This document shows positions 4,629 through 40,833 of a DNA stretch of 64,000 nt, piece by piece. How positions within the stretch are numbered: position 1 is the first letter of the stretch; every line of letters starts with the position of its first letter. Below the pieces are notes generated by a model. It saw nothing but the letters and a program-made list of their open reading frames with translations, was not told the DNA's origin and ran no database searches. The position numbers and the translations under genes are program-made. The DNA is from a virus: positions 20,088 to 84,087 of the IMG/VR virus record IMGVR_UViG_3300034101_004323; one strand, written 5' to 3'.

Positions 4629-4656
4629 GTGACTCATTATTCACTTTTGGATGGGC
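4617..4656 (+). other. RNA stem-loop spanning the dnaE internal stop
   Basis: AAGTGA (4627-4632) pairs with TCACTT (4641-4646); TCC (4623-4625) with GGA (4649-4651); GTCCA (4617-4621) with TGGGC (4652-4656); 8-nt loop. Confidence 0.65.
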
Positions 4657-7336: not shown

Positions 7337-8945
7337 ATGGTCATTTGATTGTGGATGTTGTTTTGATATAATAGGATCATCTGGAGATAAACATAAGCTT
7401 GTCTTCTCTCCCAAGATAGAATCTATAAACTTATCATGCTCAAAAACATGGGAACTAATTTCTTCTGGCAACACAAAAGGCTGTTTTCAGTTAGAATCTA
7501 GGCTTGGGCAAATGATGGCAAAAAAGCTTAAGCCTGAAAATATAGAACAATTATCTGGTCTGATTAGTATTTTAAGACCAGGGTGCTTGGAAGCAATTAG
7601 AGAAGGTAAAAGCGTAACCAATCACTATATAGACAAAAAGAATGGATTAGAGTCTATAAATTATTTTCATGAATCATTAGAGAGATCTCTCAGTACAACA
7701 TACGGAGAGATGATATATCAAGAACAAGCCATGTCAATAGCAAAAGATTTGGCTGGATTTGATCTACAAGAAGCTGATTCTTTAAGAAAAGCCATTGGTA
7801 AGAAAAAACCTGAAGAAATGGCTAAAGTTAAACAGAAATTTTTAGACGGAGCAAAAAAACTAGGCGTTGTAAATATACAAGAAGCAGAAGAGATCTTTGG
7901 ATGGATAGAAAAAAGTCAAAGATATTCATTTAATAAATCTCACGGAATATCCTATGCTATGAACGCATACCTATCGGCTTATGCAAAAGCTCATTTTCCA
8001 GAAGCATTTTTTGTATCTTATTTAAAATTTGCAAAAGATAAAATAGATCCACAGCAAGAAATAAAAGAGTTAATAAAGAATGCTAATGAAATGGATATCC
8101 TGGTTTGCCTTCCAGATTTAAGACTGAAAAATCCAAATTTTGGCATTTTTAATAACAAGATTTATTTTGGTTTAACAGATATAAAAGGAGTTGGAGATTC
8201 TGTCTTCAGTAAGATCACTGATATCTGTATAAATATTGATCTTTATAATCTTGGATGGATGGATTTATTATTAAAGCTATTACTTAATATTAATTCGACA
8301 GCTGCAAAAGCTCTTATTTCTAGTGGAGCTATAGATTATGTATCAAAAAATAGAACAGAAATGTTATTTGAGTTCGAAATTATTAGTTCATTAACTAAAA
8401 AAGAAATAGAATATGCTAGTATGGTTACTCAAACAACAACATCTACTAAAGACATGTTAACCTATTTACTTAACCATAATAAGGTTAATGTAAAACGAAA
8501 ACAGATAATACAAAGTTTATTACAGAGTGTTAATAAGCCACCTTATTCTTTAATAGATAAGATAGAATGGCTTGCTGATACTGAAGCTTCTTTGCTCGGA
8601 ACTGCTATATCCTGTTCTAAGTTAGATAGTTATGATATAGAAATGACTAATGTAGACTGTAAAACATTTAAAACCAGTAATAATGCTGCTAATATTATTA
8701 TCGCTGGGGAAATTACTAATATTAATGTTGTAAAAACTAAAAAAGGAAAATTACCAGGACAAGAAATGTCTTTTGTTTCAATAGAGGATCAAACAGGGGC
8801 CTTAGATTCTGTTATATTTTTTCCAGAAACATATGCTAAATATAAGCATTATTTATTTGAAAATAATATTCTTATTTTTATTGGAAATAAAAGCAAAACC
8901 AAAGACGGTCTGGTTGTAGATAAATGTTTCGTTCCCAAGTCTTGA
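7329..8945 (+). CDS. dnaE: DNA polymerase III alpha, C-terminal part (fingers, HhH, OB fold)
   Basis: TKGCFQLES, LRPG, IYQEQ, LRKAIGKK, YSFNKSH, FGLTDIKGVG, OB fold IAGEIT...KTKKG...MSFVSIEDQTG. Confidence 0.93.
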   Translation: MPKWSFDCGCCFDIIGSSGDKHKLVFSPKIESINLSCSKTWELISSGNTKGCFQLESRLGQMMAKKLKPENIEQLSGLISILRPGCLEAIREGKSVTNHYIDKKNGLESINYFHESLERSLSTTYGEMIYQEQAMSIAKDLAGFDLQEADSLRKAIGKKKPEEMAKVKQKFLDGAKKLGVVNIQEAEEIFGWIEKSQRYSFNKSHGISYAMNAYLSAYAKAHFPEAFFVSYLKFAKDKIDPQQEIKELIKNANEMDILVCLPDLRLKNPNFGIFNNKIYFGLTDIKGVGDSVFSKITDICINIDLYNLGWMDLLLKLLLNINSTAAKALISSGAIDYVSKNRTEMLFEFEIISSLTKKEIEYASMVTQTTTSTKDMLTYLLNHNKVNVKRKQIIQSLLQSVNKPPYSLIDKIEWLADTEASLLGTAISCSKLDSYDIEMTNVDCKTFKTSNNAANIIIAGEITNINVVKTKKGKLPGQEMSFVSIEDQTGALDSVIFFPETYAKYKHYLFENNILIFIGNKSKTKDGLVVDKCFVPKS

Positions 8946-9478: not shown

Positions 9479-11143
9479 ATGAAACAAAAATTAAAAGTAT
9501 TAATGTGTTCTGAAGCTAGTTTTATTAATTCTGGTTTTGGTAATTATACAAGAGAATTATTAACAAGATTACACAATACTAATAAATATGAGATAGCAGA
9601 ATTTGCTTCTTATGGTATGGTTAATGATCCAAGAGATAAAAATATACATTGGAAATATTATGCTAATGCAGTAAGAGAAAATGATCCAAGAATGCAAGAA
9701 TATGCTTCTAGATCAGATAATCAATTTGGAAGATGGAGATTTGATAAGGTATTACTTGATTTTCGTCCAAATGTCGTGATTGATATTAGAGACTATTGGA
9801 TGAATAATTATCAGTCTCAGTCCCCATTAAGACCATTTTTTAATTGGGTTTTAATGCCAACTGTTGATTCGGCACCACAACAAGAATCATGGATAGATAC
9901 ATTTTTACATGCTGATGCAGTATTTACCTATTCTGATTGGGGAGCAAAAATTATACAGCAACAGAGCAATAATAAGATTAATTATGTAGGCACAGCATCC
10001 CCAGGTGTTGATCTAGAAACCTTTTGTATGAAACCAGATAGAGATTCTATAAAAGCAAAATACGGATTACCACAAGATAGTTTTGTTATTGGTTCAGTTA
10101 TGAGAAACCAAAAAAGAAAACTTATCCCCGAATTATTATTAGCTTTTAGACAATTATTAGATGAACTAGAAGCAGATGGCAGTCCATTAGCAACTAAAAC
10201 ATACCTATATCTTCATACGAGCTATCCTGATGCTGGATGGGATATTCCAGAACTATTAAGACAAAATAGATTACTCAATAAGGTTTATTTCACTTACCAT
10301 TGCTCAAAATGTCAAGCAACCCATGCCTCAGTATATACTCATCCACTTAAAATCTGTAAAAACTGCCTTGAATCATCAAGCAGATTTACTTCTGTTACAA
10401 ATGGAGTATCAAATGAAACCTTATCTGATATATATAATATGTTAGATATTTATGTTCAATATGCTATTTGTGAAGGATTTGGTATGCCTCAAGTAGAGGC
10501 TGGTGCTTGTGGTGTTCCTATAGCAACGGTAAACTATAGTGCGATGGAAGACGTTATTCATAAATTAAATGCTCATCCTATTAAAATTAAATCTTATTTT
10601 AAAGAACTAGAGACAAAAGCTATAAGAGTTTATCCAGACAATAATGATTTAGTAAAGTTTATCTTAAAGTTTATGAGACAAACTAAAAATAGACAACAAG
10701 AAAAAAGAAAAGAAACTAGAAAATTAACAGAGAAGCATTATAATTGGGATAATATTAGCAAAATATGGGAAAACTTCCTAGACTCAGAATCATTATTTAG
10801 TGCTAAAAGAAATTGGGATGATCCTCCAAAGTATTTACAGCCAATTCAAGAAAATATGCAAACATTACCAAAAGATAATTTTATGTCCATATATTCTGTA
10901 TGCGCTAATAATTTAGGAGATCCTTCTTTCTTTGGAACATCTTTATGTCTAGATATTTTAAGAGATGGAGACTATGGATTTACTCAAAATGGTATGAATT
11001 TTAATAGTACAGATATCAATCAAGCATATAAACATTTACAAATAATTATAGATAATAATAATCAAGCAGAACATGCTAGATCATCTCACATGTTATTTAA
11101 TGAAGATTTTATTGAATACTCACACATAAAAAGTAGCACATGA
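9479..11143 (+). CDS. Glycosyltransferase, GT-B / GT4-like
   Basis: SGFGNYTREL, PGVD, RNQKRK, intact E-x7-E motif EGFGMPQVEAGACGVP; CxxC...CxxC insert. Confidence 0.88.
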   Translation: MKQKLKVLMCSEASFINSGFGNYTRELLTRLHNTNKYEIAEFASYGMVNDPRDKNIHWKYYANAVRENDPRMQEYASRSDNQFGRWRFDKVLLDFRPNVVIDIRDYWMNNYQSQSPLRPFFNWVLMPTVDSAPQQESWIDTFLHADAVFTYSDWGAKIIQQQSNNKINYVGTASPGVDLETFCMKPDRDSIKAKYGLPQDSFVIGSVMRNQKRKLIPELLLAFRQLLDELEADGSPLATKTYLYLHTSYPDAGWDIPELLRQNRLLNKVYFTYHCSKCQATHASVYTHPLKICKNCLESSSRFTSVTNGVSNETLSDIYNMLDIYVQYAICEGFGMPQVEAGACGVPIATVNYSAMEDVIHKLNAHPIKIKSYFKELETKAIRVYPDNNDLVKFILKFMRQTKNRQQEKRKETRKLTEKHYNWDNISKIWENFLDSESLFSAKRNWDDPPKYLQPIQENMQTLPKDNFMSIYSVCANNLGDPSFFGTSLCLDILRDGDYGFTQNGMNFNSTDINQAYKHLQIIIDNNNQAEHARSSHMLFNEDFIEYSHIKSST

Positions 11144-12138
11144 AAATATTATATATAGGACCATATAGAAACGAATTGTCTATAGGACAAGCATCAAGGA
11201 ATATCGTTTCATCATTAGCAAAAGATAATGATCTGACAATTAGACATATCTATGTGCAAAACAATAACGACTATAGGATCAGTAATGATCTGTTAGTATT
11301 GGAACAAAAGGATATAGAATCATATTATGATACTATTATTCAGCATTCAACTCCTTATCTATTGGCAACATATAACAATTTAGATATTGCAAAGAAAAAC
11401 ATAGCAATACCGATCATAAATAAAACGATTAACAAAAAACAGTATCAAAATGCATTGTCTAAATTTGATAATATTCTAACAGATGATCGAGTCATAGAGT
11501 CTATTCTAACAAAATCATATGGGATAGATAATATTAAACTGTTTAATTATAATATAACTAACAATAATCTAAATAAGATAAATTTAGATATTCATAATCA
11601 AAACAAAAAATTCTATTTTATTGGATCATTCTATAATAATAAAAAAATAATAAAACTAATAATTAGTAGTTTCTATCTAGCATTTGGAGGAACCTCAGAA
11701 GTATCACTTATATTATTTATCACAGATAATTCTGATTCGGTAAAACAAGAGCTACAGAAACTAATAAATGATCTAAAAAAAGAATTAAATATCTTAACTA
11801 CGAATTACAATCATAAAATTATTGTTAAAACACTTTCTGATGAGGAATCATTATCAGTACATAACAGTTGCGATATTTATATCTCTTTACATGACTCTGG
11901 AATAGAATCAAATATTCATAGAGCAATTGCAGAAAAATATAATAATACTATTATAGACGAATCTAATACCAATATGATATATGATATTGATCAAGGTTAT
12001 GGTGATACATATTCTTTTGGAGAGTTAACGATGACAACTAATAATGCATCTCTATCTCAATCAATGATAAGTTCTATAGTAAATAAAACAACAAAAAACA
12101 ATACCACAGAAACCATAGATAAAATTTTATGTCCATAA
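11140..12138 (+). CDS. Divergent GT-B glycosyltransferase-like protein
   Basis: MKILYIGPYR...GQASRN, KFYFIGS, HNSCDIYIS resemble the GT4 layout, but E-x7-E is absent. Confidence 0.55.
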   Translation: MKILYIGPYRNELSIGQASRNIVSSLAKDNDLTIRHIYVQNNNDYRISNDLLVLEQKDIESYYDTIIQHSTPYLLATYNNLDIAKKNIAIPIINKTINKKQYQNALSKFDNILTDDRVIESILTKSYGIDNIKLFNYNITNNNLNKINLDIHNQNKKFYFIGSFYNNKKIIKLIISSFYLAFGGTSEVSLILFITDNSDSVKQELQKLINDLKKELNILTTNYNHKIIVKTLSDEESLSVHNSCDIYISLHDSGIESNIHRAIAEKYNNTIIDESNTNMIYDIDQGYGDTYSFGELTMTTNNASLSQSMISSIVNKTTKNNTTETIDKILCP

Positions 12139-12983
12139 ATTATCAAATACATAATATATTCCATAATATATTAACTAAACAAAAATATCCTAAGAATATT
12201 TTATATACATATACAGAAAGCTTATTCGATAAAGCTATGGAAGATATTCCAGATACTATTATGATTAATAATCAGGTATTTTTGAATATTCCATTATCCT
12301 ATGGACTATGCATAATAAATGATCCTCTTGATTTTGCACAGAATATTGGAGCGTATAATAATTTATTTGCTAATAAAGTATTATTTTTTCATGATGGACC
12401 TCCACCATCCTTAAAAAAGGAAGATCTTTTTTTATTAAAAACATCATTACAAAAATTTCCTTCTTTTAGTTTTAGTTTAAATCATGAACAATGGATGAAC
12501 CAGTCCATCCAATCTCTAAATTATGGTATCAAGAATATAGATATAGATATTAATAAAGAAAAAGATATAGTTATATTATCTACTAAAAACCATAAACAAA
12601 CAAAATTAATATACGATAATCTCAAACAGGCTTATCCAAATACAGATCTGTTAACTATTAATAGTAATCAGTCTTATGAGGATATAATAAAGATAATATC
12701 TAAATATAAAATATGTATAGATCTAGGATCATACTATAATGTCCTGTGCGGTGTTTCTGTTGGTTGCTATGGTATAACAACTAAGAAATCGTATCAAGAT
12801 GATTATATTTATCAGATATCAGATTATCAACAATTAATAGGTATTGTTAAAGATATTCTATCATCACCTATTAACATTAATGATATGAGAAAATATATAG
12901 AAGATAAGTATTGTTATGAGTCTTTTATTCAAAAAATAAGCAATATAATAACTAATTATTCAGCAAAGGCCGTACTATTATGA
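12129..12983 (+). CDS. Hypothetical protein, weakly GT-B C-terminal-like
   Basis: Coupled ORF; KYKICID...GVSVGCYGIT...MRKYIEDKY pattern resembles a GT C-terminus. Confidence 0.45.
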   Translation: MSINYQIHNIFHNILTKQKYPKNILYTYTESLFDKAMEDIPDTIMINNQVFLNIPLSYGLCIINDPLDFAQNIGAYNNLFANKVLFFHDGPPPSLKKEDLFLLKTSLQKFPSFSFSLNHEQWMNQSIQSLNYGIKNIDIDINKEKDIVILSTKNHKQTKLIYDNLKQAYPNTDLLTINSNQSYEDIIKIISKYKICIDLGSYYNVLCGVSVGCYGITTKKSYQDDYIYQISDYQQLIGIVKDILSSPININDMRKYIEDKYCYESFIQKISNIITNYSAKAVLL

Positions 12984-13408
12984 GTAAAAATATTAATATA
13001 GTTCTACAGAATATGAACGTCGATCTGGTTGGTTTTGAAAATGTTGTTATTGATCAAATAGCTTCGGTATATAGTTTTTCTTGTGATATTATCAATTGTT
13101 CTATTGCTAGTTTTTTTGAACATTCAAAATTTTGGATGATCATGGAAATTTTAATAGATAAATTAAAACCGGGTGGACAACTAGCAATATCAATATACGA
13201 CACTCAAAGAATTGCTGCTCTATATACAAATAACCAAATTCAAAGTTCAGATTATCTAGGACTAATGAAAAATATTAATAATTGTATATCTCTATCTGAT
13301 TTTATGGAATTTTCATCAAATAAAAAAGATATAGTAATAGCAGATATCAAGAAAGATCAATTAATAACCAATATTACAATTATCAAGAATCAAATAACAA
13401 ATGGCTAA
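12980..13408 (+). CDS. Hypothetical protein, truncated SAM-methyltransferase-like
   Basis: FFEH...DKLKPGGQLAI resembles the class I MTase LKPGG motif; no glycine-rich motif I. Confidence 0.45.
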   Translation: MSKNINIVLQNMNVDLVGFENVVIDQIASVYSFSCDIINCSIASFFEHSKFWMIMEILIDKLKPGGQLAISIYDTQRIAALYTNNQIQSSDYLGLMKNINNCISLSDFMEFSSNKKDIVIADIKKDQLITNITIIKNQITNG

Positions 13409-14153
13409 TACATATTGCAAGGGTTGCGCATTCTCTAAGACTAATATAGCGATAGAAGAAGCTTGTGAATTTGATATTCCATATCATGTAAAAGATATAA
13501 AAAATATCTTAATTAAAGATGATTCTTACTATATAGAGAATTATAAGTGTAAATATGCTTTTTCAAATCAGATATTAATAGAGAATAATATTAATAAAAA
13601 TGATATAAAAGAAAAGCTTGTATTGGGATCTCATATAGCATATTATCTAATCATTAATGCTAGGCATTTATCTAAAATAGAGGATTTTATATATATAGCT
13701 GAACAAATCAACTCAATGGATATTCAGCCAAAATTAGTATCAATACTTATTGATATAAATAATACCAACAATAAAACTATTTTTGAGACACTGCATAATA
13801 ATATAAAAAAAGATATAAGATGGAAGTTACATGCTTTTTTAAATGACGTATCTTTTAACGAAGCAGCAAATATTGCGGCAGAAACAAATATACAAACCAG
13901 CGAATCAGCGCTTTTATATTTTTGGGATAGTTCTGTTTCTGATTTTAGTATAACAAATAATAGAATTAATCATATATTTTTTGTTAGAAATATTCAACAA
14001 AATAACATATTTGGATTCAGATCATCAGAATTTGATGGAATGTGCTTACCGATATCATTATATAAATCTATCATTACTCTAGTAGATAGAGACATATTAA
14101 AAGCTTTATCTTCTATAACCGATTTTTCATTAGAGACATATGAACAAGAATAA
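13401..14153 (+). CDS. Hypothetical protein with N-terminal Cys cluster
   Basis: 250-aa coupled ORF; CKGCAF...C...C. Confidence 0.6.
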   Translation: MANTYCKGCAFSKTNIAIEEACEFDIPYHVKDIKNILIKDDSYYIENYKCKYAFSNQILIENNINKNDIKEKLVLGSHIAYYLIINARHLSKIEDFIYIAEQINSMDIQPKLVSILIDINNTNNKTIFETLHNNIKKDIRWKLHAFLNDVSFNEAANIAAETNIQTSESALLYFWDSSVSDFSITNNRINHIFFVRNIQQNNIFGFRSSEFDGMCLPISLYKSIITLVDRDILKALSSITDFSLETYEQE

Positions 14154-14850
14154 GCAACCATTATCTGCTATAATTTTAGCATCAGAAATAACAAAAGGAA
14201 TGAAATCTATTGGATCAAAAGCTCTATTGCCGATATCTGGATCAATAACAATAATAGATTATCAGATACAGTCTTTAAAGAGATTCTATAGTCCAATAGA
14301 CATATACATATGTACTGGATTTGATCATGATAAAATTGTAAAAAAAACACAGAAGTATAAAGATATAAAATATATCTATAATAAAAATTATATTAAACAC
14401 AATCAAATGGATTCTTTACTTTTGTGTTTGGATAGATATAAACTCAATCATGCATTAATAATCAATAATGGAGTATTAATTTCTGAAAAAATTCATTTAG
14501 ACACTAATACAGAAATTTTTACTATAAACTCTCCTAAAAAAACAGACTTTAGTATTGGATGCAATATTTCAAATTTATACACAAACTATCTGTTTTATGA
14601 TCTGCCTCATAAATGGGTAGAATGTGTTTTTATAAATAATGATGCTATACAAGCTTTATTGGAGTATTCAAAAATTAAGGATATTTCTAAATTATTTTTA
14701 TTTGAAGGATTAAACATTTTATCTGAAAATATTCATCCTTTGAAAACCAAAGAAATACATAAGACAGCCGCTATAAAAATTAATACGATCAAAGACTTAT
14801 CGAAAGCTAAAAAATATTATGAAAAATATATTTGTTCAAAACACGTATAA
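14140..14850 (+). CDS. Nucleotidyltransferase-like protein (LicC/MobA/GT-A fold), divergent
   Basis: SAIILAS...GMKSIGSKALLPI, TIIDYQI, ICTGF, YNKNY...NQMDSL, KINTIKDL. Confidence 0.65.
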   Translation: MNKNKQPLSAIILASEITKGMKSIGSKALLPISGSITIIDYQIQSLKRFYSPIDIYICTGFDHDKIVKKTQKYKDIKYIYNKNYIKHNQMDSLLLCLDRYKLNHALIINNGVLISEKIHLDTNTEIFTINSPKKTDFSIGCNISNLYTNYLFYDLPHKWVECVFINNDAIQALLEYSKIKDISKLFLFEGLNILSENIHPLKTKEIHKTAAIKINTIKDLSKAKKYYEKYICSKHV

Positions 14851-15529
14851 CAAACTAATAAATAATTTACATTATATTAATCTTCCAGATATCAAATTTT
14901 ATTTTGATAATGTAAACAATAATTTATATAAATTATATTACAGTCTAAAATTATCTGATTGTATTTTTTCTTCATCTTCTATGAATGATGAAATCGTATC
15001 ATTTATTAATGATAATACTAATAATTCAAATATTAAAATTTATATTTATCATGATATGTATAATGAACATCTAATTAATATTATGCCTAAATGTTATCAT
15101 ATTATAGATGAGGATAATTATACTAATAATGGAATTAAATTTCCTAAAAACATTATAAATACTGATATTTACAAGATTAATCCTAATATCGTTAAAAAAG
15201 ATCGTATAGTTTTATTCTTAGAAAAAGAAACAGACATATCAGACTCTGTAAAAAATAAACTATATCCAAATGAGACAAAAATATTAATGTTTAATAATGG
15301 TAATATTCCTCATGACCAGAATATTGGATTTTTATCTGAAATAACCAGATCCGAAATTTTACAAGAATCTCGTTTCTTTGCTTGTAACAATAACTATTAT
15401 GCAATAGAAGCGGGACTATGTGGATGTGAAATACTTGATATGAATAATCTCGATAACAATATAACAAAAAATTATGAATTTTCAAGCTATATAAACTATA
15501 ATGAATATTTAGGAAAAATCTTAATATGA
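14819..15529 (+). CDS. Hypothetical protein, GT-like C-terminus
   Basis: Coupled ORF; NIGFLSE...YAIEAGLCGC resembles the GT4 EAxxxG motif. Confidence 0.45.
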   Translation: MKNIFVQNTYNKLINNLHYINLPDIKFYFDNVNNNLYKLYYSLKLSDCIFSSSSMNDEIVSFINDNTNNSNIKIYIYHDMYNEHLINIMPKCYHIIDEDNYTNNGIKFPKNIINTDIYKINPNIVKKDRIVLFLEKETDISDSVKNKLYPNETKILMFNNGNIPHDQNIGFLSEITRSEILQESRFFACNNNYYAIEAGLCGCEILDMNNLDNNITKNYEFSSYINYNEYLGKILI

Positions 15530-15990
15530 AACAGAATAAAGATCTCGGTTTTCTGATACCTGTATTAGATAATACTCAGTCATCAAATATTATATGCAAT
15601 ACAATATCACGTCTAATACAATCAAGACCAAAACAACAAATATGTATTTTCAATAGTTATTCTGAAAGAATTGACACAAAGAACATTCCTGTTACTCATA
15701 TTAATCAGGCTAAATTTTTTGATGGTAATTTAATAGTATTTGATTTACATTGTTTACAGCTATCTAATCTTTTTCCTCTTATACATGAAGTATATTATTA
15801 TGCTCAAAACATTCCTTGGTCAAATGGTCAGAATCATTATGCTCAGTGGAAAGAGTTATTCGATAGGAAAAATTTAAAGATTATCTCTGCCAATAAACAT
15901 ATACATGATATATATAACATCGTATGGTCAAATTCAATAGGTATTTCGGAGACTTTTAACTATGAAACAGTCAACAAATTTATACTCTAA
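15526..15990 (+). CDS. Hypothetical protein
   Basis: 154-aa ORF with ATGA-type coupling in the same operon. Confidence 0.6.
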   Translation: MKQNKDLGFLIPVLDNTQSSNIICNTISRLIQSRPKQQICIFNSYSERIDTKNIPVTHINQAKFFDGNLIVFDLHCLQLSNLFPLIHEVYYYAQNIPWSNGQNHYAQWKELFDRKNLKIISANKHIHDIYNIVWSNSIGISETFNYETVNKFIL

Positions 15991-16768
15991 TTTAGATGAT
16001 AATCAAAAATATAAAATATTACAAGAAATGTATGTTGAAAAAAAAATGAGTTTTGCAGATATTGCTCATGAGTATGATACTTACGCCAATAAAATTAGAA
16101 GAGACGCTGTATCTTTAAAAATAAAAATAAGAGATAAATCAGAAGCTCAAAAGAATGCCTTGGTAACAGGAAAACATAAACATCCGACTAAAGGAACTAC
16201 AAGGTCGGAAGACACAAAAAATAAAATAGGAAAAGGAGTAATGGACTCATGGGACAATCTAACAGAGTCTGAAATTTCTGATAGAAGGAAAAAAGCAAAA
16301 GATAATTGGGAAAGTTTATCTCAGGACGAAAAGCAACAAATGCTTAAACTAGCAAACGCTGCTGTTAGAGAAACTAGTAAGGTTGGATCAAAACTAGAAA
16401 AATATATCCTATTAAATCTTATTAAAGATGGATATAAAGTAGAATTTCATAAAGAACAAACTTTACTAAATACAAAGTTGCAGATAGACCTATTTGTTCC
16501 TAGTATTGATACAGCCATTGAAATAGATGGGCCATCTCATTTTAGGCCAGTTTGGGGTGACGAAGCATTAAAAAGGAATATTTCTTATGATAACAAAAAA
16601 GAAGGACTAATTATTGGAAAAGGATGGAAATTGGTAAGAATAAAACAAACTAAAGATTTTTCAAAAAGTAGAGCTAATTTTATCTATAAACAATTAATAG
16701 ATACATTAGCCGAAATCAAATTAAATACAGGATCAGGCACAAACACTTTTAATATACAGGACACATGA
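15962..16768 (+). CDS. Vsr/DUF559-like endonuclease with N-terminal HTH and NUMOD3-like motif
   Basis: MSFADIA...KIRR helix-turn-helix; KGTTRSEDTKNKIG; SKLE...QIDLF...AIEIDGPSH...D..K...GWKLVRI. Confidence 0.75.
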   Translation: MKQSTNLYSNLDDNQKYKILQEMYVEKKMSFADIAHEYDTYANKIRRDAVSLKIKIRDKSEAQKNALVTGKHKHPTKGTTRSEDTKNKIGKGVMDSWDNLTESEISDRRKKAKDNWESLSQDEKQQMLKLANAAVRETSKVGSKLEKYILLNLIKDGYKVEFHKEQTLLNTKLQIDLFVPSIDTAIEIDGPSHFRPVWGDEALKRNISYDNKKEGLIIGKGWKLVRIKQTKDFSKSRANFIYKQLIDTLAEIKLNTGSGTNTFNIQDT

Positions 16769-31233: not shown

Positions 31234-33120
31234 TTAATGATCCATATGATTTCTATCTGTGGTACATTGTTGGAAGATCCATGTTACAGACCTAGAATAT
31301 CTTCCCTGAGATGGAGTCCATGTCTCTGAGTCTGATTGAGTAAAAACAGTTCCATATGGTTGAGAAATAGAATTTTGAAATAAAGCATTTGTTCTATTGC
31401 CGAATGGTCTATGTCCTTCAATAATTAAGTCTATATTTTGCCATAATGGATTATCTGTGTATAAAGGACATGATGGATCTGTTTGTATGGATTCTCTTGG
31501 AGATGATGGTGGAACGATAACAACTTCAACACTAATGCTCTTTCTTGCGGTAGTCTTACCGTTGGTGGTAATAATAGGACCTAATTGGCGTCCAATAACT
31601 TGGGTTTCTGTGGTATTATCGGCTGGAGAATCTATTGTAACACTGATATTTTCACTAAGAACACCATTCCAAATAGAAGATAACATATTTGTTTTGTTAT
31701 TAAATTCATAACTATAATTTATAGTTCCTCTATTAGGATCATGACTTTCTGATGTTGATGCAGGAACGACGTTAAGGGTATTTTCTCTTGAATAATTCGG
31801 GTGTGTGTTTTGTTGACTTGGATTAATATCATTATATTCTGTTGTTCTATCATAACTATTAATGCCTAATGAAGCTCTTCTATATAACATAGGCTTAACT
31901 TTTTGTAACCAACCATCTCTAGCACTATCATATTTAGTTCTTTTGGGGGATATATTAGTTGCTACAGTAGTGTTTGATGGTTCTTTTCCATTATATTCTG
32001 AAAACTTTAAATTAATAGGATTATCTAATCCAGATCCTGTTGGCATAATTCCAGAAGTACCATCCATGATTTCTTTTGGCGTTTCTATCAAACCCTGTAA
32101 CGATCCAGCAACTCTCACTGTTGTTACATATTCTTGAGAAGTTGATCTTTCTATATTGAATGTCTCTATATATCCAATTTTTTCGGGCATTGCTAACCAA
32201 GAATCATTAACTTCGTATGTTCCATTATATATATCTATACTGGTAGTTCTAGCATGATTATATAGATGAGTACCACTAGAATTAGGAAAATAAGGAGAAG
32301 AACCAGCAGAATTTACTCCGCCAAATGGTTTTTTTAGCTGTTTTTCTACCCATGATTTGGCATATAAGTATGACTTATTATTTTGGGCTATTGATTCATC
32401 TATTGATAAACACTCTGTACCACTAGGAACAGGAATACCTCTTGCTGATAATCTTCTAGAAATTCTAAATTGAGGTATAGAAGTAATATCCACAGGAGAA
32501 GAATTCATTGTACCAATACCATTCAATGCTCCTATCACTCCAAAAGATGGGCTAAATGCCCCGTATCCTGGTGGACTTTCTGGTTTAGATGAAACATTAT
32601 ATATGTTATTTATAAATGAGATATCATCTTGTGGTTCTATTGTCCAGCTCTCACTTCTATCGCTAACATTATCTGATCCACTAACAGCAGTTAAAAATTC
32701 TAATCCAATAGCATAATCAGCAGTTTGAGTCCAATTATTTTCGCTTTTATTTACACTTAAATTAGTAACTCTTATACCACTAATACTATACATTACATCA
32801 TTATTACATTTGATCTCAAATAATCCATTTGAACAACTGAATAAATCCTCCAGTTTTTTGATAGATAAAATTATACCACTAATACCAGTTGATCCATTAG
32901 TATCACTAACAGCTTTTGTTGTACTTACTATTTTTCCTGTTAAATCTATCTGGTTTGTTATAGTTTCAACTATATTATTTGAATTAGCATTAAATGTTTT
33001 TGATATATCTACCAGAGGTTCTGGACCAACAATAGATCCTATATTAATACCTCTATAATATACTTTAACTCCGCTAGAGGATAATGCTTGAGCACTAAAT
33101 AATAAATCTTGATTAAACAT
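31234..33120 (-). CDS. Virion structural protein (628 aa), tail region
   Basis: Ser/Thr/Gly-rich, beta-type composition; lies within the tail operon. Confidence 0.55.
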   Translation of the reverse strand: MFNQDLLFSAQALSSSGVKVYYRGINIGSIVGPEPLVDISKTFNANSNNIVETITNQIDLTGKIVSTTKAVSDTNGSTGISGIILSIKKLEDLFSCSNGLFEIKCNNDVMYSISGIRVTNLSVNKSENNWTQTADYAIGLEFLTAVSGSDNVSDRSESWTIEPQDDISFINNIYNVSSKPESPPGYGAFSPSFGVIGALNGIGTMNSSPVDITSIPQFRISRRLSARGIPVPSGTECLSIDESIAQNNKSYLYAKSWVEKQLKKPFGGVNSAGSSPYFPNSSGTHLYNHARTTSIDIYNGTYEVNDSWLAMPEKIGYIETFNIERSTSQEYVTTVRVAGSLQGLIETPKEIMDGTSGIMPTGSGLDNPINLKFSEYNGKEPSNTTVATNISPKRTKYDSARDGWLQKVKPMLYRRASLGINSYDRTTEYNDINPSQQNTHPNYSRENTLNVVPASTSESHDPNRGTINYSYEFNNKTNMLSSIWNGVLSENISVTIDSPADNTTETQVIGRQLGPIITTNGKTTARKSISVEVVIVPPSSPRESIQTDPSCPLYTDNPLWQNIDLIIEGHRPFGNRTNALFQNSISQPYGTVFTQSDSETWTPSQGRYSRSVTWIFQQCTTDRNHMDH

Positions 33121-33134
33121 CCTTTATCCTTACA

Positions 33135-34379
33135 TTATATTAATGCTACAGCACTCACATATATTGGGGTTATTTTTCCAGTAATTTCTGTTCCTAAATA
33201 ATTAGCTTTTATCGTATCTCCATCGTATATACGATAATTGTATTGTAATTGTCCAATATTAGAACCATTATAATATAAAGAGGCAATACTAGGTATTTCT
33301 GATAAGTCTGGTAAATATTCTGTGGTTTTAGCAACTTCGGAAAATTTTACTGGCTGACCAGATACCGGAGGAACTATAGCCACAACCAAATCTTTAAAAG
33401 AATCTGAATTCACAAAGATATCATCTATAACTATATCATAAGATTTATTCCCAAGATTTGCAATATATTTTGTACTCTCAATATCATTATATGTGGATAA
33501 TATAGCTGATCTAATTTGGTCCACTGTTACTTTTTTTGTTTTCATTGCTAAAGGATCAGCTATTATCCTAAATTTATCTTTATGGCCTCTATTTGGTAAT
33601 AATTGATTATTTTTTTTGTTTAATATAATTGAATCTATATTATCTGTGCATGGTATAAATTTGGCTAAAATATAATTTTGGTAAGTATATGTCCAATTAT
33701 TTTCTTTATTTAATACAATAAATTCATCATCAATAGGATTACTAGATATAATTTCGCATGGAATATTTGAGGCATCAGAAACAATGATTTCTTTATATTG
33801 AGTTTTAATAATAGAATTAGAATCTAATCCCTTAACTGTCATCTTTAACAAAACTTTAGCAGAAGTTGAGAACTTTGGTATTATCTGAAACGATGTTATT
33901 GGAACGAACCTATCATTGCCAGATATTGTATATATTTGAGGGGTAATATTAACAAATGTTCCAGACGGAACAGCAGATTCTACATTAAATTCTATAGAAT
34001 AACTATTTTTAGGTTCTATGTTGTTTTCTAAATAAACCTGACCAAGAGCATCAGCAGAAGCTGCATCACTTTGACTTTGAAAGTAAGTAATCTCATCTGG
34101 GCTTGCTGTTATTAAAGTAAAATTTCCCACATAAGAGTTATTCAGTATCAGATCAGGACTTAAAAAATTAGAGGTATTTGGTGCTATTACGACTCTTGTT
34201 CCTGTTATAACAGGATATTCTGAGCTGAGATTAGCTATAGATAATGTAGAAATGCCACCCACTCTTTGAGAAGCTGTTATGTCTGCAACTTTAATTGGTT
34301 TAGGTCTAAGTTCATCAAATGTGATGCTAAGTCCACAAGCCGCAGATATTATGTTATATTGTTCAGTTGGTATAAGCAT
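33135..34379 (-). CDS. Tail-region protein (414 aa) with an AcrB/RND docking-subdomain-like segment
   Basis: GHKDKFRIIADP...VTVDQIRSAI...DSFKDLVV...GQPVKFSEVAK near the C-terminus. Confidence 0.6.
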   Translation of the reverse strand: MLIPTEQYNIISAACGLSITFDELRPKPIKVADITASQRVGGISTLSIANLSSEYPVITGTRVVIAPNTSNFLSPDLILNNSYVGNFTLITASPDEITYFQSQSDAASADALGQVYLENNIEPKNSYSIEFNVESAVPSGTFVNITPQIYTISGNDRFVPITSFQIIPKFSTSAKVLLKMTVKGLDSNSIIKTQYKEIIVSDASNIPCEIISSNPIDDEFIVLNKENNWTYTYQNYILAKFIPCTDNIDSIILNKKNNQLLPNRGHKDKFRIIADPLAMKTKKVTVDQIRSAILSTYNDIESTKYIANLGNKSYDIVIDDIFVNSDSFKDLVVAIVPPVSGQPVKFSEVAKTTEYLPDLSEIPSIASLYYNGSNIGQLQYNYRIYDGDTIKANYLGTEITGKITPIYVSAVALI

Positions 34380-34388
34380 AATTTGCCT

Positions 34389-34910
34389 TTAGCAGTTTTG
34401 GCAGGATATTGTTATGGTTCGACTTGTTAGCTCAATAAGTTCTGATGATGAATTGTAGTTTAATATTTTAAACTTTAAAATAGTTAAATTTTTAGATCCA
34501 GATATGGTTAGTGTTATTGGAACAATAGCTTCTTTAAGAGGTATGGTATTATTTGAGCTTGGATCAGTATAATTATATTCTGTATAGACTGGAGTATTAA
34601 TTGAGTAATTAATATCATTACCACTAAGATCTTCTAATTCAAATACATAATTAGTATCTGTCATTAGATCTATTACTTTAACATTTAGAATATCTCCACT
34701 ACAACAAAAATTATTTACAGAATCAAAAGTTATAGCAGGAACTTTGCTGAAACAAACTTGTTTACCAACGAACTCTACAACCGAACCATTAACTAATTTT
34801 GTATATAATTTACCAGTTACTGCATTTATTGCTATTTCTCCAACCACTAATTGATTAGCATGAGGAGGATTTATAGTTTGTTGATCATTTTTAAGTCGTA
34901 AAGTACCCAT
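34389..34910 (-). CDS. Small tail-fibre-related protein
   Basis: LVVGEIAINAVTGKLYTK resembles the N-terminal motif of phage fibre proteins; AAGGAG SD upstream. Confidence 0.55.
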   Translation of the reverse strand: MGTLRLKNDQQTINPPHANQLVVGEIAINAVTGKLYTKLVNGSVVEFVGKQVCFSKVPAITFDSVNNFCCSGDILNVKVIDLMTDTNYVFELEDLSGNDINYSINTPVYTEYNYTDPSSNNTIPLKEAIVPITLTISGSKNLTILKFKILNYNSSSELIELTSRTITISCQNC

Positions 34911-34929: not shown

Positions 34930-37900
34930 TTAATAACATACTCCAGTAAACATCATACCCAATCCACTAGGTCCACCACTAAAGTCAAAAGAATCAGTTC
35001 CAAATGTGGATGTGTCCTCGGTTACTGTTGATCTAGGATCACCGTCTGTTCCTATACTTCTAATTTCTGATGGTTCACTGTCTCCATAGCTATTTGTGGC
35101 CACAATTTTAAAGAAATATGTATTATTCTCTGGTATATTATCAACAACAAGACTGGTCGCAGATGCACTTACCGATCCGTTATATGTTATCCAAGAGAAT
35201 TGACCAATAGGAGTAACTCCATCATCAAGCCAATAATATACTATGTATCCGTTTCTTGCACTAAGACCATCATTAGCTGGTGCGGTCCAAGACAACAAAG
35301 CATCGTATTGATTTCTTGTTACGCTAAATGTTTGTGGTTTACTTGGAAAATCACTAGATGGCGTAACATTAGGTGTTGGATCACTTGGTTCTGATTTACC
35401 AACAGTATTAATAGCAATAACTCTAAATCTATAAGATGTTGTAGAGAATAAATTACTTACATAACGGTATGTTGCAGGATTAGACACTAGCGGTAGACCA
35501 TCAGTAGTAATTTGTTCGCTTTCTAGTGGTAACCAATCTTCTGCGATATCAGAATAATATTCAACAAGATAAGCATATATATCTCTACCCCCATTGTCTT
35601 CTGGAGCTTGCCATTCTAATACAACAGCATTATACTTTGGTGTTGCTATTAAGTCTGTTGGTTTTCCAGGAAGTTGTGGATTTGGTGGAGGAATTAGGGA
35701 CACAATCTGTCCAAATGTATTTATTGTTAAGGGATAATTTGGAACATAAAGTTTTTTATTTAGTGATTCTTCGTATGGAACCGGAACCGATCCCGTCCAT
35801 ACTGGATTCAATACTAGCTCTTTAGTAATAAGCCCACTACTATAAGTATAACCATCAACGCTCAAATCAGCATAGGTAGATAATGGAAGACTACCACTAA
35901 TTGCTACTCCAGTAGAACTAATTTCCATACCATATGCTTTCTCTAATGCTAGATTTTCTTCAGCATTAGCTCCATAAGATATTATACCTTCGTATACTCC
36001 GTTTAATGTTGTTATAGCATAAGGAGTATTGGTATTGATAGTAATTTTTGGTTTAACATCTAAATAAATACCTGTTGCTCTAACTGCTATCTGATTTTCT
36101 ATAATTGTTGTTTTTCTAAAAATTCCACTTTCCAATGAACCTAAAACACTATTTGGAATAGAGGCATGAACTCTAAAAGCTGGAGTTAAACCAGAAGGAA
36201 CTCCATTTTCATTTATGGCAAACCACTCTGGTTCATATCTTGTAAATAATGTTTTTCTATGACCATATACAATAAAATCAATATCTTCTGCGATTTTATT
36301 AAATGTTGTATATATATTGGGTCTGATACTAATAGTATTTATTGTGCTTGGTTTGAATCTATACTCACTATTTGCAGATAATCCATCGCAAGTAAAGCCT
36401 TCTATGGCATCTGGTTCAATCTTCATCTCCAGATATCCGCCCTTTTGTACAGAAAACGCGTAGCCTACATATCTTCCATTATCTTCATCTCCTTGACCGA
36501 GAACTAATTGTGATGTTCCATAAAAATCTTCTGGAATAGGGGGACAAACAGTTACAACTAGATCTATTTCATTTGTAAAGAAATCTTTAGCGCCATCAGC
36601 ATCTCTAGCGTCAACAAGACTAATATTTGCAACTTTAACATAGAAGACATCTCTATTTTGATTATATATTGCTATAGTTTCATTATAGGCAAATTCTTTC
36701 TGTATATCAGATAAATTAATGCCTCCAGTACCACCCTTAGATTCGTCCAGTGAAATAAATTTGAATCTGTCTATTGTTCCGCCAACCCCTGCTCCAATAA
36801 ACTCTATTGCTCTTCTAGGATATCTGGTCCAACTTACTCCTGGAGCACTAAGATAATCAGGTTGTTGCCATAGAGCTGGACCAGTACCATTATGAGTTAA
36901 AATACTTCCACTAAATCCTGGCACTAATGGTCCAACAAAAATTCTATCAGTATATAGTGCTGGTGGTAGTTCATTTTGTCCATCTGCTGTTTCACCAGAA
37001 GGCTTATAAATACCAACAACATAATTGCCTAAAGAACTTGCTTGAGATGGAGCTAATCCAACGCCAAACCAGTTAGAAGCTGTTAAATAACCCTGATCAG
37101 AATTATGTATTATACTTCCTTCTGGAGTACCATTAAGAACAGGATATAGTCCAGTTGAACTTGTAATATTACCATCACCATCTGTTGAAGAAACAACCAT
37201 GTACTCTGATTTGAAATGTTCAGAAGATACAACATTTGTATCATCTACCTTAAATAAGAATCCACCACTAGGGCCAGGGAACATACCACCCGGTATAACG
37301 TTACCATCTGCTCCAACATATTCTAGACCCCCACTAGAACTAATTTTAATACCACCACCATTAAGCCCTGATCCTATGAATAAATCCTGATAAAATTCTG
37401 TACGATTAGGAGTGAATCTAACAAGACTTAATGGATTAATTTTATTGATAAATACAGTATTGCCTGTAGTAGCAAAAACTATTCCGGTATTAGATATGAA
37501 AGTGCCAAAAGCACCAGTAATAGAGGATAATGGATCAACTTCTACAACAGTATCGTCTCCACCAAATTTAATATTATAGTTAGAATTAGAAATATTTGCA
37601 GATAATAATTTATTTCCGGATGATCCAAGACTTAGTGAATCAGCGTATATATTACCTCCAACACTAAGCGTTGAGACTAATCCACTAGCATATTCAAATG
37701 GTTCTACTCTACTAATTGTAACCGCTGATCCTGATGTACTAATAGACTCATTTGGAAGCGGCATGAAATAAGCAGCTTTATGCCATTCGTTTAATGATGG
37801 TAGCCAATATCCTGCATCTTTCTTGCGAGTTACAGAAATAACACCAGCAGATTCACTAATATTATATGATCCGTCTTCTGTTGTTGATGACGAAACCATA

Positions 37901-40833
37901 TCTCCTGTTGGAGCACCATTATTTAACCAATTGATAAATCTTAATGAGCTCAGATAATTAATATAAACTACTGGTAAATTCAACATACCATCTTTAGCAG
38001 AGTATGCGAATGGAGTTATAGAACCATCGCCAGTTCTTAGAATACCACCATAAATTGTACCAGACATTCTTGGGTCATATAAACCATTAGCCGATATTCC
38101 CGTTGCAACAGCATTTAGGAAAGAAATATATTGTTTATTTGTTATTTCTTTTTCAGAAATAGAGAATGGATATGGGACCGATCCTAAATTAGTTTTATTT
38201 ATTGGGTTTGGTTCTGCTTTTATAGTAAATCTATTAGTATAAGATTCTGTATATAAAGCAGATTCGTCAGATGGATTATATATATCCTCTACGCTAGTGA
38301 ATTTAAACTGCATACTATCATTAATAGAATTATTGCTAAATCCTGCTTTGGAACAAATTCTAAAACCAACATCATCAAAACCAGATAATCTTGGTGTTGG
38401 AACATAACTTCTTAATCCGTTGGGATCCAAAGTTCTCCATGAACCACCGCAAACATATTGCATTGAATTAGCAGAAGATATCTTTTGATCATCTTCAGTC
38501 CATTCATAAACATTACCGTTTTGATCATATGTTCCATAAAAGCTTTTTCTACCATTTGTACCAACAACACTCAACATTCCTGACCAATAAGAAGAACCCT
38601 GAGTATATGCTGCTTCTTGAAAATTTACAGTATTATTAGATCCTCCTGCTCCGTTACCATTAATAGAAATTTTAACTGGAATAGGATCAATAGCCAATCC
38701 ATCAGAATTTTCAAGTTGTGTTGCATACTGGAAATATTTACCTGATGGTTTGGTGTTAAGAGTAGCTTGGGCAAAAACATTAATAGCTGGAATATCGCCC
38801 ACACCATAAACTAAAAAGTCTATATTCTTTTTTGTTGTATTAAAAATTGTTGGAACATTGGGTCTGGTGCTTAATTGAATAGCTGTTGCATCAGAAGCAA
38901 CATTTGAAGTATATAATTCATTTCTTAATATTCCTCCTCTTGTAATAGAGAATATACTAAGATCACCAGACAAATTAACACTGTTTTCTACTACTAGGCC
39001 AGTAATTTCATCATTTGTAACAAATATATCTTCAATAATATTATAAGAGATAGTATTATCTACAATATTATTTATAGCGATTTGATCTCCAATAGCAAAT
39101 TCTTCTGTAGATGCTGGAGTGATTAAATCTATTTCTTTTGTTGTTTTACCAATACATACTTGTCCAGATCTACTAGGATATCTTGTCCAAGATAAATCTT
39201 TTCCTCCTAATCTCACAGTACCTGTTTCATATGGCCAAAAATCTGAAATATTAAATTGAGATACAACGGTTCCTCCGTCTGTTGTGGTCAAAACCTTTCC
39301 AGCGCTTTGATTTCCTAGTCCTGGAATTTTAAATCCAGTAGTTGCTACGACTCTTTGAGAAGCATCTAAACATAATAATTGATCTGTTTGAGTAATATAT
39401 GGCAATCTTAATGAGTTTAAAACAGATACTATTCCTGTGGTTGTTATATTTGAAGCTCTAATACCAACACTTCCGTCGTTTCCTGTTGTTGCTATAGAAA
39501 TATTAGATGATTTTAATTGTATACTACTATTATCAAAAACTATACTATCACCAGATGATGATACTTCTATTCTACCATTACCATTTGATATTATTGTAGA
39601 GTCAGGATGACTAGTTAATGTTGTTTTAGTAGAATTACCATCTGATACAATTAAACTAATTTGCCCATCATTATTTGCTAATGATTTAGTGTTTGCTTCA
39701 ATGGAAGCATAAGTAATTTTAGCCCCGGTACTATTTTTAGCAGAAAAAGAGACTTTGCCTATAACATTATTATCTGCATTGGTTAATGCGTATGGATTCT
39801 TATATAAAGCTATATGAGCTGGAAAATCACATGATGATTTATTTTCTAATCTTATATCTTCTTGGCATATATTATTAATAATATGAAAAACTGTTGCTGG
39901 TTTTATACCAGATGGCATATTTAAACCAAAACGACCATCATGTGTAAAAATTAAATTTCTAGATGGATAATTGGGTAAATTACCACTACCATATACTATA
40001 AAGTTTCCTGATTCTTTAGTTTGATTAAATATTGTATCAAATGTTCCTGATGATGGTAGTATAACTTTAGCAGAGCTCTCTGTTGCTGAACCTAATAAGA
40101 TTTTATTATTATTACCTATATAAGCGTTAGCTCCTGCAAAAGATCCACTATTATTATATTGTAATGATCTATCATCTCCATTAGGATTACTTTGTGCTGA
40201 AAAGATGTTCTCGTTATCATTAAACGATAAAGAGCCGACATTACTATTATTGGTATTTAGTACCACCCAATCCAGCCCTGTTGAAATTATAGAAGCATAA
40301 TCATCATTAGATAAAGATAGTAAGGTTTTATTATTATATTTTATTCCTAATGATCCTGATCCTACAATCTTAAAAAATACTTCTAATGCTTTATTTTTTG
40401 AAGCATCTATCAAGTCTGCTTCTATGTATCCTGTAGAGGTATCAACAATATATACCGTTTTAACATTATTAATAGTGAAACTATTATTTTGAAATGAAAT
40501 ATTATTAAAGCCAGTGTTAAAATTTAATGAATTAACAAATAAATAGAACTGTTTAGAGCCTTTAGAGGAAAAATTCACCATGCTATTCTGGTTCGATGAA
40601 GATACTACGCTTCTATCAGCAACAACAATGGCCGAATCATTTTTTTGTATAATTCCTACTCCAACTTCCCATTCTATGTTAGAATTATCTATTATATTTC
40701 GTGCTAAATATGGTATACTTGATCCAACATGAGTATCATTTAAATTATTATATCCTGGTAAATTATTTAAAATTACAAAATTATTGTTATTATTTATTGT
40801 AAAAACACATCCTATATTATCGAATATGTGCAT
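34930..40833 (-). CDS. Tail fibre/adhesin (1967 aa) with permuted FGE-sulfatase (C-type lectin fold) domain and two C-terminal FN3 domains
   Basis: EWEVGVG...VVSSSN fibre N-terminus; LQYNNSGSFAG; YGTYDQNGNVYEW, GGSW, GFRI, EITNKQY, LPSLNEWHKAAY; FN3 LEWQAPEDNGG...YRFRVIAIN and LSWTAPANDG...YFFKIVATN. Confidence 0.8.
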   Translation of the reverse strand: MHIFDNIGCVFTINNNNNFVILNNLPGYNNLNDTHVGSSIPYLARNIIDNSNIEWEVGVGIIQKNDSAIVVADRSVVSSSNQNSMVNFSSKGSKQFYLFVNSLNFNTGFNNISFQNNSFTINNVKTVYIVDTSTGYIEADLIDASKNKALEVFFKIVGSGSLGIKYNNKTLLSLSNDDYASIISTGLDWVVLNTNNSNVGSLSFNDNENIFSAQSNPNGDDRSLQYNNSGSFAGANAYIGNNNKILLGSATESSAKVILPSSGTFDTIFNQTKESGNFIVYGSGNLPNYPSRNLIFTHDGRFGLNMPSGIKPATVFHIINNICQEDIRLENKSSCDFPAHIALYKNPYALTNADNNVIGKVSFSAKNSTGAKITYASIEANTKSLANNDGQISLIVSDGNSTKTTLTSHPDSTIISNGNGRIEVSSSGDSIVFDNSSIQLKSSNISIATTGNDGSVGIRASNITTTGIVSVLNSLRLPYITQTDQLLCLDASQRVVATTGFKIPGLGNQSAGKVLTTTDGGTVVSQFNISDFWPYETGTVRLGGKDLSWTRYPSRSGQVCIGKTTKEIDLITPASTEEFAIGDQIAINNIVDNTISYNIIEDIFVTNDEITGLVVENSVNLSGDLSIFSITRGGILRNELYTSNVASDATAIQLSTRPNVPTIFNTTKKNIDFLVYGVGDIPAINVFAQATLNTKPSGKYFQYATQLENSDGLAIDPIPVKISINGNGAGGSNNTVNFQEAAYTQGSSYWSGMLSVVGTNGRKSFYGTYDQNGNVYEWTEDDQKISSANSMQYVCGGSWRTLDPNGLRSYVPTPRLSGFDDVGFRICSKAGFSNNSINDSMQFKFTSVEDIYNPSDESALYTESYTNRFTIKAEPNPINKTNLGSVPYPFSISEKEITNKQYISFLNAVATGISANGLYDPRMSGTIYGGILRTGDGSITPFAYSAKDGMLNLPVVYINYLSSLRFINWLNNGAPTGDMVSSSTTEDGSYNISESAGVISVTRKKDAGYWLPSLNEWHKAAYFMPLPNESISTSGSAVTISRVEPFEYASGLVSTLSVGGNIYADSLSLGSSGNKLLSANISNSNYNIKFGGDDTVVEVDPLSSITGAFGTFISNTGIVFATTGNTVFINKINPLSLVRFTPNRTEFYQDLFIGSGLNGGGIKISSSGGLEYVGADGNVIPGGMFPGPSGGFLFKVDDTNVVSSEHFKSEYMVVSSTDGDGNITSSTGLYPVLNGTPEGSIIHNSDQGYLTASNWFGVGLAPSQASSLGNYVVGIYKPSGETADGQNELPPALYTDRIFVGPLVPGFSGSILTHNGTGPALWQQPDYLSAPGVSWTRYPRRAIEFIGAGVGGTIDRFKFISLDESKGGTGGINLSDIQKEFAYNETIAIYNQNRDVFYVKVANISLVDARDADGAKDFFTNEIDLVVTVCPPIPEDFYGTSQLVLGQGDEDNGRYVGYAFSVQKGGYLEMKIEPDAIEGFTCDGLSANSEYRFKPSTINTISIRPNIYTTFNKIAEDIDFIVYGHRKTLFTRYEPEWFAINENGVPSGLTPAFRVHASIPNSVLGSLESGIFRKTTIIENQIAVRATGIYLDVKPKITINTNTPYAITTLNGVYEGIISYGANAEENLALEKAYGMEISSTGVAISGSLPLSTYADLSVDGYTYSSGLITKELVLNPVWTGSVPVPYEESLNKKLYVPNYPLTINTFGQIVSLIPPPNPQLPGKPTDLIATPKYNAVVLEWQAPEDNGGRDIYAYLVEYYSDIAEDWLPLESEQITTDGLPLVSNPATYRYVSNLFSTTSYRFRVIAINTVGKSEPSDPTPNVTPSSDFPSKPQTFSVTRNQYDALLSWTAPANDGLSARNGYIVYYWLDDGVTPIGQFSWITYNGSVSASATSLVVDNIPENNTYFFKIVATNSYGDSEPSEIRSIGTDGDPRSTVTEDTSTFGTDSFDFSGGPSGLGMMFTGVCY

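Follow-up and report, generated by a model that had tools for sequence, protein, structure and literature searches.

An insert resembling the DN docking subdomain of RND efflux pumps in a tail-module protein of an uncultured phage

How a segment resembling the docking subdomain of a bacterial efflux pump comes to lie among phage tail genes, and what it might do there, is the question raised by a 64,000-nucleotide stretch of viral DNA, hereafter the window. A first-pass annotation had picked out an AcrB/RND docking-like pattern at positions 33260-33590, in what it took to be a tail-region protein. The residues that it quoted are present and correspond to aa 264-374 of a 414-aa ORF, P0001 (Table 1). 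This ORF lies 9 nt from the upstream stop and 14 nt from the next ATG, its neighbors are co-directional, and an AAGG-type ribosome-binding site precedes its start as well as theirs. The homologues of P0001 form 35 clusters that are metagenomic throughout and annotated as hypothetical in each case. No Pfam or PHROGs family covers the whole length of the protein, and PHROGs contains no family for it or for its two small neighbors.

The window belongs to an 84-kb linear IMG/VR record with an estimated completeness of 59% (CheckV), and its GC content is ~30%. Lake-water metagenomes from many studies contain near-identical DNA, and it is from such samples only that the uncultured phage is known. 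Neither nucleotide nor protein searches matched any of 50,697 deposited phage genomes, and the phage DnaE is at best only ~34% identical to deposited phage genes, so the phage has no cultured relative or host. No prophage copy was found in 185,579 species genomes, no tRNA genes were found in the window, and IMG/VR yielded only three related loci.

Table 1 Features of the tail module and of the 414-aa protein in the window.
Feature	Position	Strand	Description and basis
628-aa downstream protein	31234..33120	-	no Pfam or PHROG family; here the variable part of the module begins
414-aa tail-module protein P0001	33135..34379	-	ORF; AF2 mean pLDDT 79; scaffold of an Ig-like and a further beta domain, carrying two insert domains
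RND DN (docking/funnel N-terminal) subdomain-like insert	33300..33584	-	aa 266-360, ~95 residues; Pfam, reciprocal profile, hhalign, fold search
beta2-beta3 hairpin of the DN-like domain	33420..33482	-	aa 300-320; counterpart of the RND inter-protomer hairpin
optional N-terminal insert domain, small beta-barrel	34026..34298	-	aa 28-118; weak fold matches
173-aa protein directly upstream of the 414-aa ORF	34389..34910	-	no Pfam or PHROG family; 57% identity to syntenic L004 gene
1967-aa structural protein directly after the tape measure gene	34930..40833	-	fn3 and FGE-sulfatase-like domains (Pfam); 44% identity to syntenic L004 gene
tape measure protein, 4228 aa	40857..53543	-	PF10145 78.7 bits, over cut-off; PHROG tape measure families E 6e-23

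Reading along the minus strand, the tape measure gene is followed by genes for proteins of 1967, 173 and 414 aa and then of 628, 1961 and 2394 aa. A distantly related locus, L004, keeps the order of tape measure, a ~1950-aa protein, a ~175-aa protein and a homologue of P0001 (41% identity), and synteny of the tail block is also seen with L003. The 628-aa protein shows no similarity to the product of the next L004 gene, which makes the 414-aa protein the last conserved member of the tail-tip block. Lying downstream of the tape measure gene as the third gene after it, co-directional and in conserved synteny, the 414-aa protein is a member of the tail module, as the first-pass annotation had proposed and as judged by synteny only; we infer its location in the virion from gene order alone.

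Other parts of the window show several further features. The tape measure protein is of exceptional length. Matches to tape measure families are confined to residues ~44-818, and the remainder has no Pfam assignment at E<=0.001, which suggests either that numerous extra domains are embedded in it or that the tail is very long. Of two structural-looking proteins encoded upstream of the tail genes, one at 59501-60583 (-) contains a proprotein-convertase P-domain (PF01483), and the other at 62219-63949 (-) carries two Laminin_G_3/concanavalin-like domains; the latter matches PHROG ‘baseplate wedge’ families via its lectin domain only. Genes for replication (DnaB, primase, and a split DnaE) form a module on the other side of the window, where glycosyltransferases are also encoded. 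The DNA polymerase III alpha subunit is split into two ORFs, at 4629-6461 and 7329-8945 (+), with the PHP and NTPase part first, the finger/HhH/OB part second and other ORFs between them. After the replisome genes comes a run of overlapping, very AT-rich genes at 9479-16768 (+), which begins with a GT4-type glycosyltransferase and consists mostly of genes that have no Pfam family.

Sequence profiles relate aa 266-360 of P0001 to the DN subdomain of RND pumps from both sides. The Pfam family ACR_tran (PF00873) matches aa 266-352 through positions 180-261 of its 1021-position profile, with an E-value of 7.5e-4 and a score of 17.8 bits that lies below the gathering cut-off of 28 bits. The same family is matched by 23 of the 28 aligned homologues. 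Scores in individual relatives range from 19.8 to 28.4 bits and always fall within profile positions 178-264; one relative, P0210, exceeds the cut-off (28.4 bits), and the others reach 19.8-26.3 bits. In the reverse direction, the phage family profile was searched against 1.84 billion representative proteins and retrieved an RND fragment, P0087, with an E-value of 2.3e-4 and a match limited to family-profile positions 267-359. P0087 is a genuine HAE-1 RND pump fragment (ACR_tran E 1.2e-33) that is 72-87% identical to pumps of ~1040 aa. Similarity specific to DN, at RND residues ~180-275, is found both from Pfam to phage and from the phage profile to RND.

Comparisons restricted to the domain converge on the same region. 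The best match of a domain-only HMM to 99 full-length HAE1 pumps starts at residues 180-200 in 92 of them; the maximum score is 29.3 bits, and the alignment spans pump residues 184-269 end to end with two small gaps. Aligning the phage domain with an RND alignment by hhalign gave a probability of 88% and an E-value of 2.8e-6 over 87 columns (25% identity, RND residues 182-268); the DC and porter subdomains of that alignment gave no further match. In the ESM Atlas, the nearest clusters to aa 262-362 were of the AcrB family in 30 out of 30 cases, which we treat as a lead only.

The structural comparison points to the same subdomain. The AF2 model of P0001 is of moderate confidence in its DN-like part (pLDDT ~57-79), where it contains an alpha/beta module with a long beta2-beta3 hairpin. 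When the model was compared with all 48,161 representative PDB chains (VIA), the periplasmic AcrD fragment 4r86_B ranked first, matching model aa 266-359 with a Z-score of 11.6 and an rmsd of 2.5 Å over 88 residues at 19% identity. The best unrelated fold reached a Z-score of 8.7, which leaves the AcrD match ~3 Z units clear. Full-length AcrB, AcrD, MdtF, AdeJ, and MtrD align through residues 179-277 with model aa 265-360 (Z 7.1-7.4, 63-74 residues, 16-22% identity), and this range identifies the structural match as DN. HMMER searches of PDB sequences found no pump, whether the query was the family profile, P0031 or the isolated domain, so the relationship is visible only to profile-to-family and structure comparisons. 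With the whole model as query, AcrD was only rank 39 in Foldseek, and a BFVD search returned only unspecific Ig-like matches to uncharacterized phage proteins.

The low Pfam score of P0001 and the blank pairwise and profile searches of PDB sequences would also fit a generic ferredoxin-like alpha/beta module, a very common fold, that came to resemble DN by convergence or chance and shares no ancestry with it. We consider this very improbable. Independent sequence and structure routes converge on the same 90 pump residues and single out DN, not DC or any of the four porter subdomains; the reciprocal match is significant among 1.84e9 proteins, P0210 passes the Pfam cut-off, and the AcrD match stands 3 Z units above every other fold. 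These results uphold the central claim of the first-pass annotation, and we conclude with high confidence that aa 266-360 are homologous to the DN docking subdomain of RND pumps.

The phage domain keeps the DN order of elements (beta1, alpha1, the beta2-beta3 hairpin, alpha2, and beta strands) as well as its length, with two small gaps over 87-91 aligned positions and a hairpin of matching length. Both share the core motifs R-I..D-P, T..D-x-R, F.D.V-x-A, and G.P-x-K/R..V-A. They differ in that identity is only 16-25% and Pfam scores are mostly below cut-off, and in that the phage copy sits in a loop of an all-beta scaffold instead of in PN2, with no transmembrane domain, porter subdomains, or DC partner around it. 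Whereas an RND permease (PF00873) has twelve transmembrane helices and loops containing PN1/PN2/DN and PC1/PC2/DC, the phage protein has 414 aa, corresponds to RND in its DN region only and is otherwise beta-sandwich. As had been noted from the sequence, RND transmembrane helices are missing: no transmembrane segment was found in the 414-aa protein (maximum Kyte-Doolittle value for a 19-residue window, 1.16), and there is no transporter context. P0001 itself was rejected as an RND transporter, given the missing membrane and porter parts and a score (17.8 bits) short of the 28-bit cut-off.

The porter-domain (PD) fold is also used elsewhere outside the canonical RND porter context. The periplasmic domains of MacB, FtsX, and LolC likewise contain a ferredoxin-like PD-type module (PMC8277102), but those are periplasmic parts of membrane transporters with standard PD topology, whereas the phage match is the DN variant in a predicted virion protein.

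Relatives of P0001 define the boundaries of the domain. Region-specific HMMs were built for N1 (aa 1-118), N2 (aa 119-265), DN (aa 266-360), and C (aa 361-414), and the family profile search returned many remoter proteins that share the flanking parts only. Two classes can be told apart by the distance between N2 and C: 90-106 residues in one, which includes P0001, P0030, and P0045 to P0050, and 4-32 residues in the other, which includes P0052, P0055, P0058, P0083, P0054, and P0057. The motifs K-K-N..L-P and I-P-x-V..G-E-L are only 4-7 residues apart in P0052, P0055, P0058, and P0083, and in a direct alignment of the second class K-K-N..L-P-x-R runs continuously into I-P-x-V..G-E-L..N..Y. Because distant relatives join the flanking motifs directly, the DN-like domain is an insert. 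The minimal homologue, P0052 (239 aa), is predicted as two beta domains with a pLDDT of 92.7, and in this model the insertion slot is a loop (aa 167-183) that connects two strands of the second domain.

These boundaries also correct one detail of the pattern first described. Its agreement with DN stands from aa 266 to ~359-360, but the final motif, YYNG (aa 370-373), was rejected as part of the DN-like domain: it lies in a scaffold strand that is also present in insert-less relatives, so its resemblance to the pump fNG is coincidental.

In a tree of the N2 region, all 16 insert-bearing proteins fall inside one 22-row clade (SH-aLRT 95), and 17 of the 23 insert-less proteins fall outside it. 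On this tree, taken as unrooted, at least three changes are required, for example one gain and two losses. The DN-like domain is thus very probably an acquired insert, gained within one clade of a wider phage family, in line with the suggestion of the first-pass annotation that it had been captured. DN is universal in RND pumps but occurs in only one clade of the phage family, so the most parsimonious direction of transfer is capture from a bacterial pump gene.

The scaffold accepts inserts at other positions too. The segment aa 28-118 is missing from P0049, P0050, P0052, P0055, and P0058, with the first ~27 residues retained, and its fold matches (Z ~7-8) include the phi92 endosialidase beta-barrel, EF-Tu domain 2, and phage tail proteins. 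P0055 and P0058, which do not carry the DN-like insert, have a different insert of ~78 residues at the linker between the beta domains (alignment columns 221-299), which brings the number of insertion slots to at least three. In P0054 and P0057 a stretch of 26-32 residues occupies the slot of the DN-like domain; that of P0054 is Cys-rich with several C-x-x-C-like spacings, and a small knot or metal site may stand there in place of the insert.

The scaffold itself has few distinguishing features. Its first domain is a generic Ig-like/PapD-like sandwich (Z <=8.5) that is not diagnostic, and a fold search with an insert-less homologue returned generic Ig-like folds only, which does not identify it. 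The architecture of the relatives is more informative. In longer relatives of 806-1025 aa, the 414-aa core is followed by Pro/Thr-rich linkers and then by FGE-sulfatase-like or other globular domains, and distal domains in relatives are lectin-like. Remoter scaffold relatives end in RCC1 repeats, in fn3-like domains or in a Pro/Thr linker with a further, unassigned domain. In one metagenomic relative, P0061 (635 aa), the scaffold N-terminal domain leads directly into a Pro/Thr linker, beyond which lies an RCC1-like beta-propeller of six blades (PF00415, E 9e-44). The 1967-aa neighbor of P0001 carries two fn3 domains close to its C-terminus as well as an FGE-sulfatase-like (SUMF1) domain, and the latter type recurs distally on longer DN-bearing homologues (L004 9986-13063; P0211).

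A conserved N-terminal part with exchangeable distal domains, as found in these relatives, is a fibre-type arrangement. The layout of the relatives is that of a tail fibre or baseplate-attached protein, with a virion-proximal anchor and exchangeable distal binders; P0001 would be the anchor part alone, as it has no distal domain. It resembles phage tail fibre and baseplate proteins in its position after the tape measure gene, in its Ig-like scaffold with insert domains and in its conserved 414-aa core, which in relatives is extended by Pro/Thr linkers and by domains of the FGE-sulfatase-like, RCC1, or fn3 type. It differs from them in matching no PHROG or Pfam tail family and in having no distal domain.

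Within the DN-like domain, conservation is concentrated in the hairpin. Ten of the 43 invariant positions of the whole protein lie in aa 300-320, where the stretch A-N-L-G-N-K-S-Y-D-I includes the invariant columns A307, L309, N311, K312, S313, Y314, D315, and I316, followed by D320. The most conserved 15-residue window of the protein is aa 307-321, with a value of 0.87 against 0.55-0.70 for the four regions. The phage hairpin aligns with the RND hairpin in both the domain HMM and the hhalign alignments, but its sequence, invariant across the phage family, is unlike that of the pumps. Its tip (aa 304-311) has a pLDDT below 50 in the monomer model.

In RND pumps, DN and DC derive from the porter-domain fold by a beta2-beta3 hairpin that is flipped out of the sheet, and the gap left behind is filled by the hairpin of the neighboring subdomain, a ‘hairpin swap’ that ties the trimer together (PMC8277102). 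The isolated AcrD fragment aligns with the phage model over 88 residues (Z 11.6), compared with 63-74 residues for the trimeric full-length pumps (Z ~7), a difference roughly as large as the hairpin. A non-swapped hairpin conformation may thus be common to the monomer model and the isolated fragment.

The swap known from RND pumps, the conservation of the phage hairpin and its poorly defined tip in the monomer model lead us to propose that the insert is an assembly module, which accords with the trimerization idea of the first-pass annotation. Our overall reading, to which we assign a probability of roughly 0.6, is that P0001 is a protein of the tail tip, baseplate or fibre module in which a captured DN domain serves assembly by hairpin swapping. 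The ancestral form would have been a two-domain all-beta scaffold that made up the conserved N-terminal part of fibre-like proteins and anchored them to the virion. The ~95-residue domain homologous to RND DN would then have entered a loop of the second beta domain in one clade. The DN-like domain of an adjacent copy, or else a neighboring tail protein, would receive the invariant hairpin (aa 300-320), so that three or six copies would be locked into a ring around the tail tip; a ring of three or six members would be compatible with tail symmetry and would anchor any distal domains that the protein carries. The RND funnel ring comprises three DN and three DC subdomains atop the pump; as the phage protein has only one such domain, the geometry of its ring must differ. 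A complex prediction with three copies of aa 119-414 scored 0.00, ‘no answer’, and counts neither for nor against oligomerization.

We put the chances of an assembly or docking role by hairpin exchange, taken as a separate claim, at about even. Against the overall reading stand the sub-threshold Pfam score of P0001, the identity to pumps of only 16-25% and the moderate confidence of the DN part of the model; furthermore, conservation of the hairpin fits a binding site for another partner equally well. Such a hetero-docking module would not self-associate: its hairpin and surface would bind another tail component and fix the protein to the baseplate, with the conserved 173-aa or 1967-aa neighbor or the tail tube end as candidate partners. 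A free hairpin can serve a foreign sheet by beta-augmentation as well as its own, the hairpin is invariant, and the genes for both neighbors are conserved in synteny with the 414-aa gene. P0052, P0055, and P0058, however, are presumably attached to the virion without a DN-like domain, so the domain is not needed for basic anchoring, and we judge the hetero-docking role unlikely.

Tail proteins are commonly decorated with binding modules, and the scaffold takes different inserts at three slots and bears lectin-like distal domains in relatives. The insert might then bind a glycan or protein ligand, or the host surface, with its pump ancestry irrelevant to its function. Receptor-binding parts usually vary fast, however, whereas conservation among relatives of 37-93% identity is highest in the DN-like domain, and we know of no ligand site in DN subdomains. 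A binding role is accordingly improbable in our assessment.

The first-pass annotation had also raised the idea of a mimic that imitates the docking face of RND pumps and, as the phage adsorbs or its DNA enters the cell, engages the periplasmic adaptor or a TolC-type channel. The pump segment to which the domain is homologous faces the adaptor and channel side, and a tail-tip location would permit periplasmic exposure after penetration. What phage and pump conserve in common, however, is a hydrophobic core pattern, and what is invariant in the phage is the oligomerization hairpin, with no recognizable adaptor-contact surface. Only one of the two docking subdomains is present, 16-25% identity argues against the copying of a specific host surface, and neither the prophage search nor the search for cultured relatives pointed to a host. 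We found nothing that supports mimicry and regard it as highly unlikely. The same holds for a bolder variant, to which we give very little weight, in which six (or three) copies with swapped hairpins would rebuild, at the tail tip, an RND-like funnel crown that, once the outer membrane is penetrated, docks on the host's periplasmic adaptor or outer-membrane factor and borrows the efflux conduit for genome delivery.

Host-derived inserts are common in phage tail proteins. A literature search for a PF00873/AcrB-like domain in phage tail proteins returned nothing relevant, and no earlier description of an RND docking subdomain in a non-transporter protein was found in the literature search or PHROGs. 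The insert in P0001 is apparently the first RND docking subdomain found outside a transporter, and it marks DN as a portable, selectable soluble unit. Should the domain contact efflux machinery after all, it would establish a new link between phage entry and pumps. For RND structural biology, the phage protein offers a natural minimal system for the principle of assembly by hairpin swap. For phage biology, it offers a dated case in which part of a host membrane protein was exapted for use in a phage tail, with clean insert boundaries and insert-less relatives for comparison.
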